Both the position numbers and the translations under genes were made by a program. A DNA stretch of 42,976 nucleotides from a virus (taxonomy: Duplodnaviria > Caudoviricetes): IMG/VR virus record IMGVR_UViG_3300028585_000010, positions 1-42,976 of that record; one strand, written 5' to 3'. Each line of letters opens with the position of its first letter. Position 1 is the first letter of the stretch. The notes under the pieces are model-generated. The model had not been told where the DNA came from and made no database searches. It was given only the letters and a program-made list of their open reading frames with translations. This document shows, one piece after another, positions 24,961 through 42,871 of the stretch.

Positions 24961-27132
24961 ATGGCTAATCCCTCCCAGGCTAAACTGCCAACTATCCGCA
25001 TCGAGAATCTTGGTGCGGCACAGTCAAATGTACCTTTCACCTTTGGTCAGGTGTTTGGGGTTGGTCATGTGAAGCCTGGAGAGGGGCTGTCTGCTGTGCT
25101 GGAGGATGGCTCCAAGGTCGCGCTACAAGTCGATCAGAAGGCGACGCACCCGGATGGCTCTGTGCGACACGCTGTTCTGTCTGGAGTGCTTCCTAAGCTC
25201 GATAAAGGTGCGACAGAGACGTTACAGCTAGTGAAGGCAGATCAGGTAAAGGGTAAGTTCGTGCCTGACCTCGCTGGCCTTGCTGGCTCCGTCGAAATCA
25301 CCATTGATGGCGTCAAATACACTGCCGGCGCGCTGTCTGGCAAGGCTATTGAGTGGCTGAGCGGCCATGTGGTGGCTGAATCGATTGTCGATGCGCCTCT
25401 TGTCGACGCTAAAGGTAATCCTCATTCTCATCTGACAGTTCGTGCGGGCATCCGTGGCTATGTCTCGAAGCATGCTCGAATCGAAGTCATCATCGAGAAC
25501 ACAAAGACGTTCACTCCAGGTGCAAACAACTTTAAGTACGATGTCGCTTTCAAGCTCGGGAAAGATGTCGTCTTCGAGAAAAAAGGCTTGATGCACTATC
25601 ACCATGCGCGCTGGCGTAAAGTGTTCTGGACTGGCGGCGAACCGTTGATCCATGTTCAGCACGATCCAGAATACGTCATTGGCACAAAGGCGGTTTCTAA
25701 CTACGACCGCTCTGCTACGCCGCAAGAAAAGAATCTACAATCGGTAACTCAACGAGTTACGGAAGAAAATACCGCCATTATGGCTGTTGGCCCCATCAAC
25801 AAAGCCATGGGCACGACTGGTGGGCGTCCTGATATCGGCCCTCTTCCGAGCTGGTACGTGATGTATCTGCTGTCGGCTGATAAGCGCCCGCGTGATGTCA
25901 TGATGGCGGCTGCTGAAGGTTCAGGTAGCTGGTCTATCCACTACCGCGACGAGAACACTGGCTATCCTGTGCGTACCGATAACGAGAAGAACAAGAACAT
26001 CTCTACGCACATGAACTTGTCTAACAAAGGGCCATTACCTGTCCCTCGTTTCGCCACCGGCAAGGGTACTCTGTCCACGCCTCTGTCGAACGACACGGCG
26101 CACCAACCGTCCTTTGCTTATTTGCCGTATCTTCTGACTGGCGACTACTACTTCCTCGAAGAGCTTCAGTTTTGGGCGACCAGCAACACGCTAGAGACCG
26201 ATCCTGGCAATCGTGGATACGAAAAAGGCTTGGTGAACTGGCAGCAAGTCCGAGGTCAGGCATGGTCTCTGCGCACGCTGGGTCATGCTGCCTACATCAC
26301 GCCGGACGATCACCCGCTCAAGGACTATTTCCTCAAGCAGCTCGACAACAACATCGAGTTCTACCGCCAGACCTATGTCGAGGGCAACCCGAACGCGTTG
26401 GGGGTGTACGACGGCTCCGGCAAGAACTCGTTCCCCATCGCGGCGTCGGCGCCATGGCAGGACGACTTCCTGACCTGGAGCTTCGGCAACCTGGTCGAGC
26501 TTGGCTTCGAGAAGGCCCGGCCGATCCTTGAATGGAAGGCCAAGTATCCGGTCGGCCGCATGACGGCGCCGGGTTTTTGCCAGATTGCCGCAGCTGCGTA
26601 CTACATGGAGTTCCGCCCCGCACCGAAAGAGCCCCTGTTCTCGAACTTGGCGGATATGTACCAGTTCAATTTCGGCGGCGACAAGATCTCGTTCGAAAGC
26701 AAAGCGCTCAAGCACCCCAAGGGCCTCAAGTTCATCGATCAGCCGTGCGGCAGCCAGGAGCAGGCCGACTGGATGACCGCCACCAACGGATTCAATTGGG
26801 CGGTGGGCCGGATGGGCGGCTTCTCCGACTCGGTGATGGGCTATCCGGCGAACATGCAGCCTGCACTGGCGGTGGCCGCTACGCTAGCTGTACCGAAGGC
26901 TGACGAAGCATGGGCCCGGTTTGACGCACGGACGGCTAAGCCTGATTACCGGACCGGCCCGCAATTCGCGATCGTGCCGCGCCCACCCGAGAAGGTGGAA
27001 GAACAGCCGCAGCCAGAAAAGCAGACGATCGGCCTGCGCGGAGTCAAGTCCGATGCGGACGAACAACTGCAGGTGACGCATGCCGGCATCAAGGCGGGCA
27101 CGCGGTACACTGTTGTCATTTTGGAAGAATAG
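24961..27132 (+). CDS. Large PcRGLX/YetA-like (polysaccharide-lyase-like) protein, 723 aa
   Basis: N-terminal VPFTFGQVF..G....LQVD..ATHPDGSVRHA; DTAHQPSFAYLPYLLTGDYYFLEELQFWA; QVRGQAWSLR; ORF certain, family inferred. Confidence 0.6.
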   Translation: MANPSQAKLPTIRIENLGAAQSNVPFTFGQVFGVGHVKPGEGLSAVLEDGSKVALQVDQKATHPDGSVRHAVLSGVLPKLDKGATETLQLVKADQVKGKFVPDLAGLAGSVEITIDGVKYTAGALSGKAIEWLSGHVVAESIVDAPLVDAKGNPHSHLTVRAGIRGYVSKHARIEVIIENTKTFTPGANNFKYDVAFKLGKDVVFEKKGLMHYHHARWRKVFWTGGEPLIHVQHDPEYVIGTKAVSNYDRSATPQEKNLQSVTQRVTEENTAIMAVGPINKAMGTTGGRPDIGPLPSWYVMYLLSADKRPRDVMMAAAEGSGSWSIHYRDENTGYPVRTDNEKNKNISTHMNLSNKGPLPVPRFATGKGTLSTPLSNDTAHQPSFAYLPYLLTGDYYFLEELQFWATSNTLETDPGNRGYEKGLVNWQQVRGQAWSLRTLGHAAYITPDDHPLKDYFLKQLDNNIEFYRQTYVEGNPNALGVYDGSGKNSFPIAASAPWQDDFLTWSFGNLVELGFEKARPILEWKAKYPVGRMTAPGFCQIAAAAYYMEFRPAPKEPLFSNLADMYQFNFGGDKISFESKALKHPKGLKFIDQPCGSQEQADWMTATNGFNWAVGRMGGFSDSVMGYPANMQPALAVAATLAVPKADEAWARFDARTAKPDYRTGPQFAIVPRPPEKVEEQPQPEKQTIGLRGVKSDADEQLQVTHAGIKAGTRYTVVILEE

Positions 27133-27135
27133 TAA

Positions 27136-29838
27136 ATGACGGTTAAGTTTAATAGAGCGTCCTTACAGTACCTCAGCGCTCCAGACGGGCTGAACAATAC
27201 ATTCCCCGATGAGGCGTGGTCGCTCTGTTTTGTCCTTTGTATTGATGGGACGTACACAGGCGCCGAGAACCAAATTCTTTTTTCTACCGGAGCAATCGCT
27301 ACCGGCGCGGTGAATGTTTCCTATCTTGGGCCCGGCCATTCCACCCCTAATTCGATTGGTGTCCAGATAGGATCGGCCAGCAGCATATTCGCCGCACCCG
27401 CCAATTCCCTGAGCGGGTCTTCTAAGTGGGTAATCTCCCTTGGAAGGGGCAGCACCGGCGGCGTGAGCCTGCGCATGAGCCCTATTCTGGCTACCGCCCC
27501 GGCGGACGGTAACGCGGTCCCGACTGTGACCTTGTCGGGCGCTAGCTTGAGCGGCACGCGTGACGGCCCGGGTTCGATGGTGATCGGTGCGCGTGCGGAT
27601 CTTGAGCCGGCGAAGGCTGCGGATCAGTCCATCGGCCGATTGTTCCGGGTCCGGGGCGGCATTCTGTCGACCTATGAGGTCGCGCGGCTGGCCTATGGCG
27701 AGACCGTTTACGATATCGGCAGGACTCCTGATTTTTATTTCCCCCTGGCTACTGCAGCCGACCTGACGGATCTCGGCCCACAGGCGGTGGTCCTTAAAGC
27801 GACCAACGGTCCGACTACCGGCACCGATCCCGGGTTCGGGTACGCACCTTCGGCCCCTATGGCGCCGGAATTTACGTCGGCCCCCGCGATTATTGGCACG
27901 CCGTCAGTCGGCACGGCCACAAGCTACACCGCCGGCACTGTTACGGGCTCGCCCGTGCCCACTGTGACGCGGCAATGGCTGCTCGACGGTGTCGCTATAC
28001 CCGACGCCACCGGCGCGGCTTACACCCCGGTGGCCGGCGACGCCGGCAAGCAATTGGCCGTCCGGGAGACCGCGACGAACGCGAGCGGTTCGGTCAGCTC
28101 AACCAGCCCGGGTGTCGCCGTCGCCGCGCCCCCGGCCTTTGCTGATAGTTTCACGCCGATGACTTCGCGCCGCATCTATCAGCGCATCTCGGGCAAAGCC
28201 GCGGTGAAGATGTCGGGCGAATACAATGTAGCTCCGGCCACGATTGAAGCGCAGCTCGTTGCGTCTGCAGACGGCACGACGGTGTTGCAGGCTTGGACGC
28301 CGCTGACTGCGACGACCATTTCTGGCAACGCGTGGGAGGGCACGCTGGCCGCGAACCAAGGCGGCGGATACCGCGCGCAAGTACGATTCAAAAATGCGTC
28401 TGGTACGGTCATCTACACGTCCGCTCTGGACACGAATTCGTGGGGCGTGGGCGAACTGATTGTTGGCGCGGGATCGTCGACGATTCACGGCTGGTGGACG
28501 AGCGGAACTTACCCGGGGACCGCGTACATTGCCACTTACCGCACGACTGACGGCTACACCTGGAAGTCTTTCCCGACGGCGTCCAACGGCATCGCCAAAA
28601 AGATCGCCAACGATTTGGCTTTGCGCCTGGGTGTGCCAGTCGGCATGATCGGCGCCGGCGAGTCAGGCACGATGCTCAAGACCTGGACCGAGGCGGGCAA
28701 TCCCTATTTTGCCAAGCTCACCTCCGCGATCAACGCTCAGGGCGGCAAGATCGGGGCGTTGATCGTATCCATGGGCTCGAACGATGCCGGGAATAACGTT
28801 GTCGTCAGCCGGGCCGCGCACGCAGCCATGTTGCGCAAGTTTATTGCGGACGTGCGCGCGCTGACGGGCCAGCCCGACCTTAAGGTGCTGATCAGTGGCT
28901 TTAATCGCCGCACCGACACCAACAGCACCCAGGCCAACTACGTACGCATGGCTGAACTGGACGTAGGTGCAGACGCCAACGTTTATCACTTTCCCACTGT
29001 CGATATGGCACTGGGTGGCGACGGCATCCATCTGGCGAGTTACGACGAAAGCGGCAACCGAGCCGTTGCGGTGTTTAATCCGGTGCTCGCCGGCGACCCG
29101 ACGTATCGTCAGGGTCCGAAGATCGCCAGCATGATGTACTCGGGCAGTAAGTTCACGGTCAATCTGCAGCACCGCAATGGTACGGACTTCACGCCCACCA
29201 GCGGCAATAGCGGGTTCGCCGCCAGCGACGCGACCGGAGCACTGACCCTGACCGCTGCGCGCAAGAGTGCCACGCAGATTGAGCTGATGGCTGATCGAGC
29301 TATCGGGGCCAGTCCGAAACTCACCTACATGGCCGGGGCTGACCCAGATGTGTCAGCGTTCACGTTTGATAACGGCGCCTATGCGCTGCCGATGGACGTT
29401 GAGACGGACATGGCTGCCACGCAACAAGCCCCAGGTGCGGATACCACGGCGCCCACGTTCCCGGCAGGGGCCACGGCCACGGTAACCAACATCACCAACA
29501 ACGGCGCGACGATCACGGTGCCGGCCGCTACGGACGACGTGGCGGTGGCGGGGTACCAAGTCAGTGTGAACGGCGGCGCGAGCTACAACAATGCCCCAGG
29601 GCGCGTGATCCCGCTCACTGGCCTGCCAGCCGGAACCGCAGTACAGGCTCGAGTCCGCGCGTACGATGCGGTGCTGAACTACTCCAGCCCACTATCGGCC
29701 AACTTCACCACGTTGAGCGACACTCCCGCCCCCGGCGGCATTGATGCGACGAAAGTCCCGGTCGAGCGAAGAGTTGTTTTCGAAGGCAATAAGCGCGTGG
29801 TACCATTTGAGGGAAGTATTCGAAAGGTGGTTTTCTAA
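27136..29838 (+). CDS. Multidomain fibre/appendage protein: LamG-like, Ig-like, SGNH/SASA esterase, FN3
   Basis: SGNH blocks GAGSS / GESG / MGSND / DGIH; Ig-like RQWLLDGVAIPDATGAAYTP..D.GK; FN3 ATDDVAVAGY...LTGL...VRVRAYDA. Confidence 0.75.
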   Translation: MTVKFNRASLQYLSAPDGLNNTFPDEAWSLCFVLCIDGTYTGAENQILFSTGAIATGAVNVSYLGPGHSTPNSIGVQIGSASSIFAAPANSLSGSSKWVISLGRGSTGGVSLRMSPILATAPADGNAVPTVTLSGASLSGTRDGPGSMVIGARADLEPAKAADQSIGRLFRVRGGILSTYEVARLAYGETVYDIGRTPDFYFPLATAADLTDLGPQAVVLKATNGPTTGTDPGFGYAPSAPMAPEFTSAPAIIGTPSVGTATSYTAGTVTGSPVPTVTRQWLLDGVAIPDATGAAYTPVAGDAGKQLAVRETATNASGSVSSTSPGVAVAAPPAFADSFTPMTSRRIYQRISGKAAVKMSGEYNVAPATIEAQLVASADGTTVLQAWTPLTATTISGNAWEGTLAANQGGGYRAQVRFKNASGTVIYTSALDTNSWGVGELIVGAGSSTIHGWWTSGTYPGTAYIATYRTTDGYTWKSFPTASNGIAKKIANDLALRLGVPVGMIGAGESGTMLKTWTEAGNPYFAKLTSAINAQGGKIGALIVSMGSNDAGNNVVVSRAAHAAMLRKFIADVRALTGQPDLKVLISGFNRRTDTNSTQANYVRMAELDVGADANVYHFPTVDMALGGDGIHLASYDESGNRAVAVFNPVLAGDPTYRQGPKIASMMYSGSKFTVNLQHRNGTDFTPTSGNSGFAASDATGALTLTAARKSATQIELMADRAIGASPKLTYMAGADPDVSAFTFDNGAYALPMDVETDMAATQQAPGADTTAPTFPAGATATVTNITNNGATITVPAATDDVAVAGYQVSVNGGASYNNAPGRVIPLTGLPAGTAVQARVRAYDAVLNYSSPLSANFTTLSDTPAPGGIDATKVPVERRVVFEGNKRVVPFEGSIRKVVF

Positions 29839-39507: not shown

Positions 39508-39761
39508 GCTATTTACCCGGCATGATTTCTTATGTGCTTTTTGATCCCGAAGCCAGAGAACTGCTCGGGGGCTACGTGCAAGTCCCGCCCCCGGAGCATG
39601 TGCATCGAATTGAAGTATCAGACGAGGTGCGAGTTTCTTGGCCGCTGTATCGCCTAAATGCCGACATGACCGGCGTGGAGTTGATCCCATGGTGGGAGGA
39701 GCAACCAGAAGAGCCTCCAGTTGACCCCGAGCCATCCGACCCCGTACAATCCGGCAACTAG
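39504..39761 (+). CDS. Putative tail fibre assembly/chaperone protein
   Basis: ATGA-coupled after the fibre gene; acidic Pro-rich tail. Confidence 0.55.
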   Translation: MSYLPGMISYVLFDPEARELLGGYVQVPPPEHVHRIEVSDEVRVSWPLYRLNADMTGVELIPWWEEQPEEPPVDPEPSDPVQSGN

Positions 39762-39792
39762 AATCCTCTAGTGCAAACGTAAAGGAAGCATC

Positions 39793-39930
39793 ATGCGCAA
39801 GCAACTGTTCGCCGGCAACGGCAACCCTCCACCAAAAGATAAGCCGAACCGCGAAACTCCCGCCCCTGTCGAGATCCCGGAAGAGACTGACGCAGGCAAC
39901 GGCAACCCACCACCAAAAGACCAGAATTAA
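39793..39930 (+). CDS. 45-aa peptide with duplicated AGNGNPPPKD motif; not in ORF track
   Basis: MRKQLFAGNGNPPPKDKPNRETPAPVEIPEETDAGNGNPPPKDQN; AAGGA RBS; stop abuts the next ATG; the two repeat copies differ only at synonymous positions. Confidence 0.8.
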   Translation: MRKQLFAGNGNPPPKDKPNRETPAPVEIPEETDAGNGNPPPKDQN

Positions 39931-40329
39931 ATGTACCTGGTCGCATGCGGCGTCTTGCTGGCCGTTGCTACGGTCCTCAACCTGCGGGATCGCCGCATGC
40001 TCGCGCTCACCCTTGCGGTGGGCGTCAACGTCTTCTACTCCGTCCCCGCGCAGTCACAAGCTGCATTCTACGGCACGTGTATCGCTCTCGAATTGATGGT
40101 GCTCACGGTGGCGGTGTTCTACACCTCCCGCGCCAGTTGCATCGCGATCTATGCGTCCTGCGCATTGGTCATCGTCCACTTCATGGGCTGGACCCTCGAC
40201 GGTAGCCCGCCGCTCTCCCCGTACCGTGTTCTCGTAAAGCTGCTTGAATGCGCCCAGCTCGTCGCATGTGTGGCACTATCGCCCGTACTTACGCCGAAAC
40301 TGAGGAACCGCGATGCAGCGCCTACATGA
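39931..40329 (+). CDS. Multi-pass membrane protein of unknown function, 132 aa
   Basis: About 4-5 hydrophobic segments. Confidence 0.75.
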   Translation: MYLVACGVLLAVATVLNLRDRRMLALTLAVGVNVFYSVPAQSQAAFYGTCIALELMVLTVAVFYTSRASCIAIYASCALVIVHFMGWTLDGSPPLSPYRVLVKLLECAQLVACVALSPVLTPKLRNRDAAPT

Positions 40330-40765
40330 CCATGCCATGCCTCTCTTGAGGCTCTACGCCGGGGGCGATGCGATCATCTCCTGGTACAACTCGTTCAGTG
40401 ATCCTTACGCCCGCCTGGCGCGCATTGCGCAGACGCAGGACGGCGGCGTGCTGATCTGGATCATGGCGATTGTCGGCATCGCTATCGTGCTGGACGTGTT
40501 CATCAACGACTGGACCCCCAGCCGAATCAAATTAGGCAAGCATTCCATTCAGCTTGCATGGAATAAAGCATTTCAGTATAGACACTTCCTTTTCGTTGCG
40601 TTAGCCTTCTGTTATGCCGCACAACCTTATGTAGCAGAACGCGGCGGACACGCGATTTCCTTGCTGATCTGGTTCTACTGGAACAGTTTGCAGACGATCG
40701 TAATCGGATTTCTGGACGCCAAACAACGATCAAGGAGCCTCGGGTGGCAAAGAGCTATCAGCTAA
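40313..40765 (+). CDS. Membrane protein of unknown function, 150 aa
   Basis: About 3 hydrophobic segments; GAGG RBS; overlaps both neighbours. Confidence 0.75.
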   Translation: MQRLHDHAMPLLRLYAGGDAIISWYNSFSDPYARLARIAQTQDGGVLIWIMAIVGIAIVLDVFINDWTPSRIKLGKHSIQLAWNKAFQYRHFLFVALAFCYAAQPYVAERGGHAISLLIWFYWNSLQTIVIGFLDAKQRSRSLGWQRAIS

Positions 40766-41190
40766 AATACGCCATCTGGGCTTACCTCCTGGTGCAATGG
40801 AGCGCGGTCGCCTACGCGGCCGAGCACCCCCTCGTCGCCGGCATCGAATCGATTCCATTGACCGCAGTGCTGTACGTGTTCGCCCTGTCTATCGTGGGTG
40901 GCGCAGCGGGCACCTTGACCAAGCTGGCACGGCCCGAGATCGTCGTGCGCAGCCTCACCCTGGAGATCAGCAAGGACATCGTGGCTTCGGTTGCGGCCGG
41001 CCTCTTGGTGTTCTTCTTCACCAGTTGGTGGGACGGCGTGAACTTCTGGCTGCAAGCGGCGCTGGTCACGATGGCCGGTTACGGCGGCTCGAAGGTGCTG
41101 GACCTGGCGCTGGCCGATGGGTTCTTGCCCTGGCTGCAGCGCGCCTTCGGGCGCAACATCGACGCGCCACCAAACCGTTCACCGGAGTAA
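40744..41190 (+). CDS. Putative holin (LydA-like)
   Basis: Multiple TM helices, GGAAG...S..AGL...AGYGGSKVLD pattern; directly before the endolysin. Confidence 0.7.
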   Translation: MAKSYQLKYAIWAYLLVQWSAVAYAAEHPLVAGIESIPLTAVLYVFALSIVGGAAGTLTKLARPEIVVRSLTLEISKDIVASVAAGLLVFFFTSWWDGVNFWLQAALVTMAGYGGSKVLDLALADGFLPWLQRAFGRNIDAPPNRSPE

Positions 41191-41193
41191 AGC

Positions 41194-41694
41194 ATGACCC
41201 CACAACGACTGATCAACACCGGCATCGCGCCAGCTCTGGCCGAGCTCGAGGCCCAAGGCATCCCCGACAGCGTGGACGCGCGCCGCTTCCTCATGGCTAT
41301 CGCACTCCAGGAGTCCGCGATGATGGCTCGTCGCCAGATCACCGCCAGCGGCACGGAGAATGGTCCTGCGGCCTCGTTCTGGCAGTTTGAGCAGGGTGGC
41401 GGGTGCAAGGGCGTGCTGAGCCACCGCAGCACCGCGGAGCGCATGCGCAAGCTGTGTGTTGACTACAACGTCGCGCCGACCCCGCAAGGACTGTGGGAGG
41501 CGATGCGTTACAACGATGTGGTGGCCGCGGCCGCCGCGCGACTGCTGATCTACACCTTGCCCAAGGGCCTGCCCAAGACGGCCGAGGAAGGCTGGGAGCA
41601 GTACATCGCGGCGTGGAGGCCGGGCAAGCCGCACTCGGCCAAGTGGCAAGCTAACTGGGGTGCGGCAACTCTTGCTGTGGGGTTGAGGCTATGA
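41194..41694 (+). CDS. Endolysin (lysozyme/transglycosylase-like fold)
   Basis: LMAIALQES...RRQ...GPAASFWQFE; Y...WRPGKPH; lies between holin and spanins. Confidence 0.8.
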   Translation: MTPQRLINTGIAPALAELEAQGIPDSVDARRFLMAIALQESAMMARRQITASGTENGPAASFWQFEQGGGCKGVLSHRSTAERMRKLCVDYNVAPTPQGLWEAMRYNDVVAAAAARLLIYTLPKGLPKTAEEGWEQYIAAWRPGKPHSAKWQANWGAATLAVGLRL

Positions 41695-41806
41695 GTACGG
41701 ACAAAGAGATAGCGTTCAGGAGTAGGAATCTTTTCTGGCTTACCGCCGCGGTCTTTGGGTTTGCGTGTTTCGCTCTCGGCCATATATCGGGCGCATGGAG
41801 GTTTAT

Positions 41807-42277
41807 GTGAGCATCCTACCTACTTGGCCGATTGCGGCCGGTTGTCTGGCGCTGGGTATTCTGGGCGGTGCGTACGTCGACCATCAGATCATGGACGCCA
41901 AGATCCAGAAGATCACCGCCGCCCACACCGAGCAGCTGCGCGTGCGCGAGGTGCAGCGCGCCACCGACGAACGTGTCGCCCGCGAACGGGAGAACGCCCT
42001 CGCCACTCGCGCCGGGCAAATTGAACAGGAGAAGGAAAATGCGATCAACGCCGTTCGTACTGACGCTGATGCTCTTATTGCCCGCTTGCGCCAGCAAGCC
42101 GCCAGCAAGCCCGCCAGTCCAGGTCGAGTGCCCTCGGCCGCCGCCACTTGCGAAACACCCGCTGGGGCAACCGTTCCTGACCGAGCTGGAGAAGATCTTG
42201 TTCGCCTCGCCGCCCGCGCCGACGAACTGAGGACGGCGCTGGGGGCGTGCTATCAGTCTTATGATTCGCTGCGCTAG
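41807..42277 (+). CDS. Rz: i-spanin (Rz-like)
   Basis: N-terminal TM, coiled coil, LAARADEL...L.AC..SYD; GGAGG RBS before GTG. Confidence 0.85.
   Translation: MSILPTWPIAAGCLALGILGGAYVDHQIMDAKIQKITAAHTEQLRVREVQRATDERVARERENALATRAGQIEQEKENAINAVRTDADALIARLRQQAASKPASPGRVPSAAATCETPAGATVPDRAGEDLVRLAARADELRTALGACYQSYDSLR
42039..42230 (+). CDS. Rz1: o-spanin lipoprotein (Rz1-like), embedded in Rz
   Basis: MRSTPFVLTLMLLLPAC lipobox, Pro-rich mature part, +1 frame inside Rz. Confidence 0.85.
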   Translation: MRSTPFVLTLMLLLPACASKPPASPPVQVECPRPPPLAKHPLGQPFLTELEKILFASPPAPTN

Positions 42278-42507
42278 GACTTGCGCCAGCCATCAAGCCA
42301 CATGAAATAGACGGCGAACTTTGCTCCATCTAATCGCCCCTTGCGATAAATTAGGATGCCATCGTAGCCGTCAAGCAGAGCAAGAAGAAGTAGGATTCCC
42401 CATACCGCAGCTCCTTTAATGCTGAAGAACTGGACTCCTGCAACAGCTAGGGCGATTCCTAAGCAGGCAAACAATACGCACCGCATTACAGTCGATAGCA
42501 GTCGCAT
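42274..42507 (-). CDS. Small two-TM membrane protein, 77 aa
   Basis: MRLLSTVMRCVLFACLGIALAV...; GAGG RBS; follows the lipoprotein gene. Confidence 0.65.
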   Translation of the reverse strand: MRLLSTVMRCVLFACLGIALAVAGVQFFSIKGAAVWGILLLLALLDGYDGILIYRKGRLDGAKFAVYFMWLDGWRKS

Positions 42508-42514
42508 ATCTACC

Positions 42515-42871
42515 TCACAGCAGCACGTTATACCCACGCCCAGCCATGCAGCGGAAGGCGATAGTCTTCTTGTCCTGCACAGCCGATCCTGCACCTTCAG
42601 CAGCACCAGCCACGCCGAAAACTTGAGCGCCGAACTTAGCGCCATCTGAGCCGCCGATAGCCGCACCAATAAGCGCACCTAGCAATGCCCCGCCGATTGC
42701 ACCGTTGACCGCGCTACCGCCCGTATCGACTTGCTCAGCGTACTGATTGCACTCTGCGGTGTCTTGGTAATACTTGGCAGTATCCACGCCGCGCATGTCA
42801 ACGATCTGGCTCGGAGTGTGGTTAGCGCAGCCGGTCAGGGCCAATGCTGCGATGATGACGATGAGTTTCAT
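42515..42871 (-). CDS. Glycine-zipper lipoprotein
   Basis: Lipobox LTGC; GAIGGALLGALIGAAIGG zipper; terminal RCMAGRGY. Confidence 0.85.
   Translation of the reverse strand: MKLIVIIAALALTGCANHTPSQIVDMRGVDTAKYYQDTAECNQYAEQVDTGGSAVNGAIGGALLGALIGAAIGGSDGAKFGAQVFGVAGAAEGAGSAVQDKKTIAFRCMAGRGYNVLL

Follow-up and report, generated by a model that had tools for sequence, protein, structure and literature searches.

Why would a phage carry a short peptide gene with a repeated core directly in front of its lysis genes? The question is raised by a complete phage genome of 42,976 bases with direct terminal repeats, the whole of which is here called the window. In it a small reading frame, P, is followed by genes for two membrane proteins, A and B, a holin and the rest of a lysis block (Table 1). 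The structural block is siphovirus-like, and helicase, primase and RecE/RecT-like genes are also encoded among the 36 ORFs scanned. Tyrosine integrases of the PF00589 type, as distinct from serine integrases or plasmid-like lysogeny, gave zero matches in the complete genome; the positive control matched in 14 of 14 cases, and no integrase was seen among these 36 ORFs. Because there is no tyrosine integrase, a lysis-lysogeny switch is an unlikely target of the locus. Rz/Rz1-like spanin matches point to a Gram-negative host; the sole bacterial-genome match to B, a contig in a Novosphingobium MAG, does not fix it. Elsewhere in the window, the stretch 24961-29838, between the major capsid gene and the head-tail adaptor, holds two large ORFs, of 723 and 900 aa, that have hardly any PHROG match.

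Table 1. Features at the lysis end of the window
Feature	Position	Strand	Evidence
Sigma70-like promoter (TTGACC-N18-TACAAT); shares sequence with the 3' end of the 85-aa ORF upstream	39721..39750	+	10/12 matches
Ribosome-binding site of P, AAGGAAG	39782..39788	+	sequence
P, 45-aa leaderless Pro-rich two-core peptide	39793..39930	+	sequence, conservation; MRKQLFAGNGNPPPKD...DAGNGNPPPKDQN
Core copy 1, AGNGNPPPKD	39811..39840	+	sequence
Core copy 2, AGNGNPPPKD	39892..39921	+	sequence
A, 132-aa five-helix membrane protein, predicted N-out/C-in; candidate receptor or processor	39931..40329	+	AlphaFold2, conservation
B, 150-aa four-helix membrane protein, candidate antiholin or co-holin	40313..40765	+	phrog_20672 E 3e-10; phiAxp-2 gp36 fold and profile match
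LydA-family holin	40744..41190	+	PF16083 E 1e-8, 35.7 bits vs cut-off 28.4; phrog_6384 holin E 4e-11
Probable endolysin, 166 aa, inferred from position	41194..41694	+	phrog_3108 (unknown function) E 1e-31
i-spanin, Rz-like	41807..42277	+	phrog_2466 E 3e-9; GTG start inferred from L001 relative
Embedded o-spanin, Rz1-like lipoprotein	42039..42230	+	phrog_3198 E 2e-5; ORF also in L001

Is P a gene? It appears in the ORF listing at a 30-aa cut-off, and the reading frame with its own ribosome-binding site, proposed in a first-pass annotation of this DNA, was confirmed. So were the two copies of its core, which differ at repeat positions 3, 18 and 30, all by synonymous changes. Shuffling the codons of the ORF 20,000 times never produced a repeated word longer than 7 residues, against the 10 observed. 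SD words of 4-5 nt precede 27 of the 31 listed peptides, each start having been picked by its best SD. Relatives of the peptide in the protein collection (n = 19) carry two cores in 16 cases and one in 3, a split biased by the two-core query; the variable copy number that had been predicted is nonetheless borne out. In the 16 two-core relatives the cores are near identical, whereas the spacers (17-26 aa) have drifted to 20-68% identity, and across 26 GNGNPP cores the third codon positions vary, the first two being fixed by that selection of cores. Judged from these comparisons, P is a real, conserved gene, and selection on the peptide core, as the first-pass annotation had proposed, is shown at the level of conservation to act on the short Gly-rich core alone. 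The position of the core within the ORF is free (start, middle or end, 2-31 residues before the stop, and in one case at the end of an ORF of 64 aa), as would be expected of a core that is excised. P matches nothing in Pfam, PHROG or NCBIfam and contains neither Cys nor Ser. The absence of a signal peptide also held up: the maximum 8-residue hydropathy of P is 0.19, it stays below 0.9 in 29 of 31 peptides, and by this hydropathy-based measure a signal-like hydrophobic stretch was seen in no peptide, those of L053 and L121 possibly excepted.

With which of its neighbours does P belong? Searches with A or B yielded loci L001-L036, many of them duplicates, which were collapsed; the linkage count excludes the copies from the window itself and L024 and L027, two loci that are truncated ahead of the A start. 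P precedes A in all 16 non-self loci with upstream DNA, as 14 distinct peptides, so that the counter-case named by the first-pass annotation, A homologues lacking an upstream core peptide, did not occur among them. In each, an ORF of 31-46 aa ends at the start of A and carries the core [ATS]-G-[NGH]-G-(Q/T)-[NDE]-P-P, a pattern defined post hoc from the peptides in loci that are related rather than independent. A scan of viral contigs for GNGNPPP codons returned at least 119 stretches, 39 of them with short flanks; in at least 17 a short core ORF is immediately followed by an A-family gene, and at least 14 of these are new. Scans for two other motifs, DAGGRGK (120 stretches) and TGGGNPP (59), returned only Edwardsiella phage PEi21 and the L019 contig. 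The loci that have B and the holin but no A (L013, L029/L030, phiAxp-2 and ST79) carry no core peptide. Genomic context thus shows P tied to A, with P+A as the apparent pairing unit. The association with two membrane proteins that had been claimed earlier therefore stands for A; it falls for B, which occurs without P and A and is missing from six P+A loci. Most A-family cores are an identical GNGNPP despite the diversity of A. When 21 A proteins were placed in a tree, L002, L015 and L028, whose cores are GGG-type, grouped together with a shared loop-2 deletion; this grouping was not counted as co-evolution, since kin share labels and L019 falls elsewhere. GNGNPPP was also seen at the C-terminal end of longer ORFs in L065 (1225-1587, where it occurs twice) and L152, where no A-family gene was detected.

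B appears, from its distribution, to be the partner of the LydA holin and a separate module not linked to P. B is present in L013, L029 and L030, with the holin where it was read and with neither A nor core, and ST79 gp24, a relative of phiAxp-2 gp36, directly precedes a PF16083 holin in a P2-like cassette without P or A. In the six P+A loci without B, A is followed instead by a gene whose 106-132-aa product has a single hydrophobic helix, at its N-terminus, and only weak Rz-like or unknown PHROG matches; five of these loci have a lysozyme-like gene further on, within two ORFs. Because B+holin occurs without P+A, and P+A without B, the cassette reads as P+A placed before B+holin. Fold searches with B against solved structures gave generic helical bundles (best Z 11.7), and A was found not to be homologous to B.

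Lysis cassettes with two membrane proteins are known elsewhere. B plus the LydA holin is arranged in this way, with gp24-gp25 of ST79 as another instance of the pair, but such cassettes are without P and A. One source labels the gene before the holin of Burkholderia P2-like phages a putative antiholin, by prediction (PMC5247547), and the putative antiholin of AP3 is comparable to B in layout; LysF1a/LysF1b of mycobacteriophages is a further two-membrane-protein cassette, according to the accessible text of an F1-cluster preprint (10.64898/2025.12.04.692442). The gene order that had been read from the window (A, a second membrane protein, holin, endolysin, spanins) holds for B, the LydA holin and the Rz-like spanins, and for the endolysin by its slot only. 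The 166-aa protein matched phrog_3108 alone and no solved structure; it is called an endolysin because of its slot, which lysozyme-like genes fill in L002, L005, L006 and L036. The phrog_3108 protein also occupies the slot in L001, L029 and L030, carries an ALQES motif, and probably represents an endolysin family not yet annotated. At 41691-41810, flanked by the probable endolysin and the i-spanin, is a 39-aa ORF with one hydrophobic helix; the close relative L001 lacks this ORF. On the minus strand, a 118-aa glycine-zipper lipoprotein-like ORF (42515-42871) with a weak N-terminal match to the Cor superinfection-exclusion protein faces the lysis block and is overlapped by a second hydrophobic ORF (42274-42678, also minus strand); both are kept in L001.

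How is the block expressed? The TTGACC-N18-TACAAT site was picked up in a scan whose total count was no higher than in shuffles. Of the 32 P loci, 22 have a -10-like hexamer 29-54 nt upstream of the peptide start codon, where shuffled sequence would give 5.1; none of the 17 other gene starts of the window is preceded by one. The promoter is kept in L013 and L029, both without P+A, and so belongs to the lysis unit and not to P alone. Context shows that P+A comes first in a unit that has a promoter-like site, and that what follows the pair is a holin or a different small membrane gene from the lysis block. In L013 (2912-2962) and L029 (2412-2462) the promoter is kept together with a Pro-rich ORF of 16 aa, joined through TAATG to a B that has an N-terminal extension; the -10 of L013 falls within a short inverted repeat. 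The small ORF may be a relic of a deleted P+A.

Might P then act only in cis, as a leader in which EF-P-sensitive stalling at PPP controls translation of the coupled lysis genes? No other ORF comes between P and the promoter, its stop codon touches or overlaps the start codon of A, PPP ends most A-type cores, and the 16-aa ORF of L013 and L029 is again Pro-rich and coupled to B. The stalling alternative offered in the first-pass annotation nevertheless fits poorly. With 2-31 residues between core and stop, the core has no fixed place relative to the coupled start; PPP is missing in 3 of 14 distinct A-type peptides and in all seven peptides of the remote family A' described below, five of which lack even PP; the part common to both sets is the Gly-rich half and not the polyproline; and the core is gone where A is gone, although promoter and holin remain. 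We regard a leader as quite improbable.

What kind of protein is A? The TAA of P does abut its ATG, as had been noted, and the 4-5 transmembrane segments first proposed resolve into five predicted helices (2-16, 21-35, 43-63, 69-89 and 97-115; AlphaFold2 pLDDT 91). A profile search with A collected 102 clusters at 50% identity. The 90 members aligned matched no PHROG family at E 0.001 and, in one case of 90, a Pfam DUF weakly; A has no NCBIfam match. Family conservation, partly circular as members were recruited by profile, is 76% for Y47, 83% for E54, 97% for H83, 100% for Y98 and 96% for E106. Lys+Arg averages 1.9 in loop 1, 1.2 in loop 3 and 3.4 at the C-terminus, versus 0.4 and 0.7 in loops 2 and 4, from which an N-out/C-in topology is predicted. 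On the model, Y47, H83 and Y98 would lie near the periplasmic ends and E54 and E106 in mid-membrane, and the conserved polar residues are predicted to resemble an outward-facing polar pocket. Fold searches against solved structures returned generic helical bundles (best Z 10.3, no Foldseek match at E 0.001). The ESM Atlas returned unnamed, mostly phage clusters below 0.9, and gave A a weak likeness, under the search's threshold, to the membrane parts of histidine kinases. A predicted complex of A and P scored 0.00, with unfolded controls, and counts as evidence neither way. A tblastn search of cultured phages with A, B and two distant A relatives gave no match, and the A3 profile, searched without a positive control, detected no A elsewhere in the L013 genome or in phiAxp-2.

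A fold search led to cultured phages. The second viral match for A is a 143-aa protein of phage PEi21 (TM 0.65, E 0.057), assigned to ORF50 by protein length. The gene before it, ORF49, encodes a 41-aa peptide with three DAGGRGKTR repeats, and the one after it, ORF51, has weak holin matches. ORF50 belongs to phrog_15451; it has relatives in 77 phage records, and a Vibrio relative has them in 44. Eight loci of this family, A', were read. In seven an AGG-core peptide lies upstream, with up to three repeats: DAGGACVKPRGK in JD001, MAGGANVKPRGK in PEAT2, AAGGRGQQR in two Vibrio phages, MAGGNGKQR plus two DAGGKAKVR in an Erwinia phage. In the eighth, Vibrio phage Rostov M3, both A' and the holin-like gene are present, but no peptide lies upstream. 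A similar small holin-like membrane gene follows A' in all eight (phrog_13707 in the three scanned), and six loci are beside lysis-like genes, four of these divergent from the endolysin. Profile-profile comparison of A with A' gave 62.5% and E 7e-5 over 102 columns, with Y47, E54, H83, G86 and Y98 in register, falling to 8% with a narrow alignment and 2.8% with a single sequence; the alignments lend moderate support to a relationship. The A and A' peptides share a small residue and Gly that lead into a Gly-rich stretch, in many cases with Asp in front. Two other fold hits, each matched to its gene by protein length only, were rejected as relatives for want of a profile link to A. One, gp48 of Shewanella phage 3/49, is in a lysis block with no peptide, and the annotation tables of Shewanella 1/41 and 1/44 offer no obvious candidate. 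The other (K4JPZ4) is a 166-aa protein of phiCbK with four to five helices (L355, 19335-19835), away from the lysis genes; the ORF preceding it ends in a core-like TGGEDKPDAPEVPPGG.

Could P+A be a known system in a new place? Arbitrium, agr and T4 lysis inhibition were each tried on defining features of sequence and gene content, which the locus lacks, and were rejected as its identity. The arbitrium system of Bacillus SPbeta-like phages (AimP-AimR-AimX) is like P+A in its phage-encoded short precursor, small conserved core and adjacent candidate cognate receptor, and some arbitrium precursors carry repeats. However, the arbitrium/RRNPP propeptide has an N-terminal Sec signal and P, by hydropathy, has none; the arbitrium receptor is a cytoplasmic TPR regulator, whereas the genes next to P encode hydrophobic bundles of helices (132 and 150 aa) that gave no match to TPR; and arbitrium sits at a lysogeny switch, P+A beside lysis genes in a phage that has spanins and is probably lytic. 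Multi-core RiPP precursors of the cyanobactin and microviridin type share the repeated cores, but P has no leader and no known maturase nearby; A may be a new one. T4 lysis inhibition is a response to superinfection and works through holin T, with its periplasmic domain, and the antiholin RI. At the locus neither RI, RIII nor T was matched in Pfam or PHROG, and the holin is of the LydA family. As far as the available parts of the sources describe them, T4 (RI/RIII antiholins, holin T), N4 (preprint 10.1101/2025.11.12.688109) and BSPM4 share with P+A the proposed output, holin timing shifted by a periplasm-side cue of phage density; N4 and BSPM4 respond to superinfection, ORF52 of BSPM4 being a 64-aa single-helix protein (PMC11657625). 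None of the three, in those parts, has a peptide gene with a polytopic partner or a family match to the P+A locus. No description of the pair was found in the literature searched, which was largely main texts outside subscription and included part of PMC5025407. P+A is apparently a real, conserved and undescribed peptide-membrane protein module at phage lysis genes, as far as comparison of sequences can tell.

AgrB-AgrD is the likeness that bears on another possibility, that P and A act within one cell. AgrB is a small polytopic membrane protein with Cys and His, and AgrD, like P, is a precursor of about 45 aa encoded beside it. A might be an intramembrane processing or export enzyme of AgrB-like logic, using Cys50 and His83 or two Glu, or P might be an intracellular ligand or substrate, as part of an internal lysis clock. 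P lacks a signal peptide, and its gene is coupled to that of A; C50 (76%) and H83 (97%) are conserved, at similar depth in helices 3 and 4; and an unchanging core is as fitting for a substrate as for a ligand. But A' has no Cys at the equivalent of position 50 and Asn in place of His83, AgrB (Pfam, E 0.01) or protease families matched none of the 90 A members, and no second receptor gene accompanies P+A. The core of P, moreover, has no Cys or Ser ring residue, amphipathic leaders are absent, and there are no two-component genes. We consider action within one cell unlikely, if still deserving of attention.

The reading that we prefer, tentatively and at somewhat less than an even chance, is that P and A are a ligand-receptor pair by which infected cells sense the lysis of their neighbours and shift holin timing. 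Since it has no export signal, P would build up in the cytoplasm and be freed when the cell bursts. Proteases would trim it after a small residue (A, T, S or V) to a core starting with Gly, and the core repeats would yield more signal per precursor. The core would then enter the periplasm of nearby infected cells, bind A, and A would act on the adjacent holin system. By analogy with lysis inhibition, the likelier output is a delay of lysis at dense infection, which would make the outcome a peptide-triggered counterpart of that phenomenon. Beyond the linkage of the genes, we infer every step. Release by lysis and sensing by neighbours would be the simplest account, given an excisable leaderless core, a membrane partner with a putative outer polar pocket and a holin next to it; the placing of the conserved polar residues of A in the predicted outer, periplasm-side half counts for it, as do the linkage of P to A, the near-constant cores between drifting spacers, and the AGG-core peptides and holin-like genes around A'. 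Counting against it are the A' of Rostov M3, which has no peptide, the peptide-free lysis block around gp48 of Shewanella phage 3/49, and the low diversity of cores in the A family, as signalling systems usually diversify their peptides. So does the gene after A, which differs between groups, a holin role being shown only in B-type loci.

Is the holin involved at all? P+A could be a superinfection-exclusion or membrane-protection module that shares the lysis promoter and does not touch the holin. Its host-type promoter suggests expression apart from the structural genes, and the phiCbK candidate lies far from lysis genes, although that protein, as noted, is not linked to A by profile. A membrane gene of the lysis block follows A in three unrelated layouts, however, and exclusion leaves a peptide core of variable copy number unexplained; we think it improbable. 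There is a slight chance that none of the four explanations is right.

Phage-phage peptide communication has been described in Bacillus phages, where it governs lysogeny. In T-even lysis inhibition, an example of communication among lytic phages in the available portion of a 2026 review (PMC13389391), the cue is not peptide-based. A peptide-gated holin, if real, would bring in a signal and receptor of a new class and a further point at which burst size and lysis time are controlled, and its reach would include Klebsiella phages studied for therapy. A still broader proposal, which we put forward with more reserve than the ligand-receptor reading itself, is that lytic phages of Gram-negative hosts run an export-free peptide quorum system: a leaderless multi-core peptide freed by lysis would be read by a minimal five-helix receptor wired directly to the holin, so that nearby bursts set the time of lysis. 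The family would extend to cultured phages of Klebsiella, Edwardsiella, Pectobacterium, Vibrio and Iodobacter, with several dialects of the core, and phages that have the receptor alone may eavesdrop. Even without a cell-to-cell signal, P+A is a conserved, unannotated part of lysis cassettes, and the related module in PEi21, JD001, PEAT2 and phiPLPE makes the hypothesis directly testable in culture. Two details of these cultured loci stand out. In all seven of L158-L164, the boundary between A' and the holin-like gene is covered by an overlapping ORF of 55-73 aa whose N-terminus is hydrophobic. The phiPLPE locus has two AGGQGK cores in different frames, which flank an A-run (L161, 1341-1455), reflecting a sequencing error, programmed slippage or decay.
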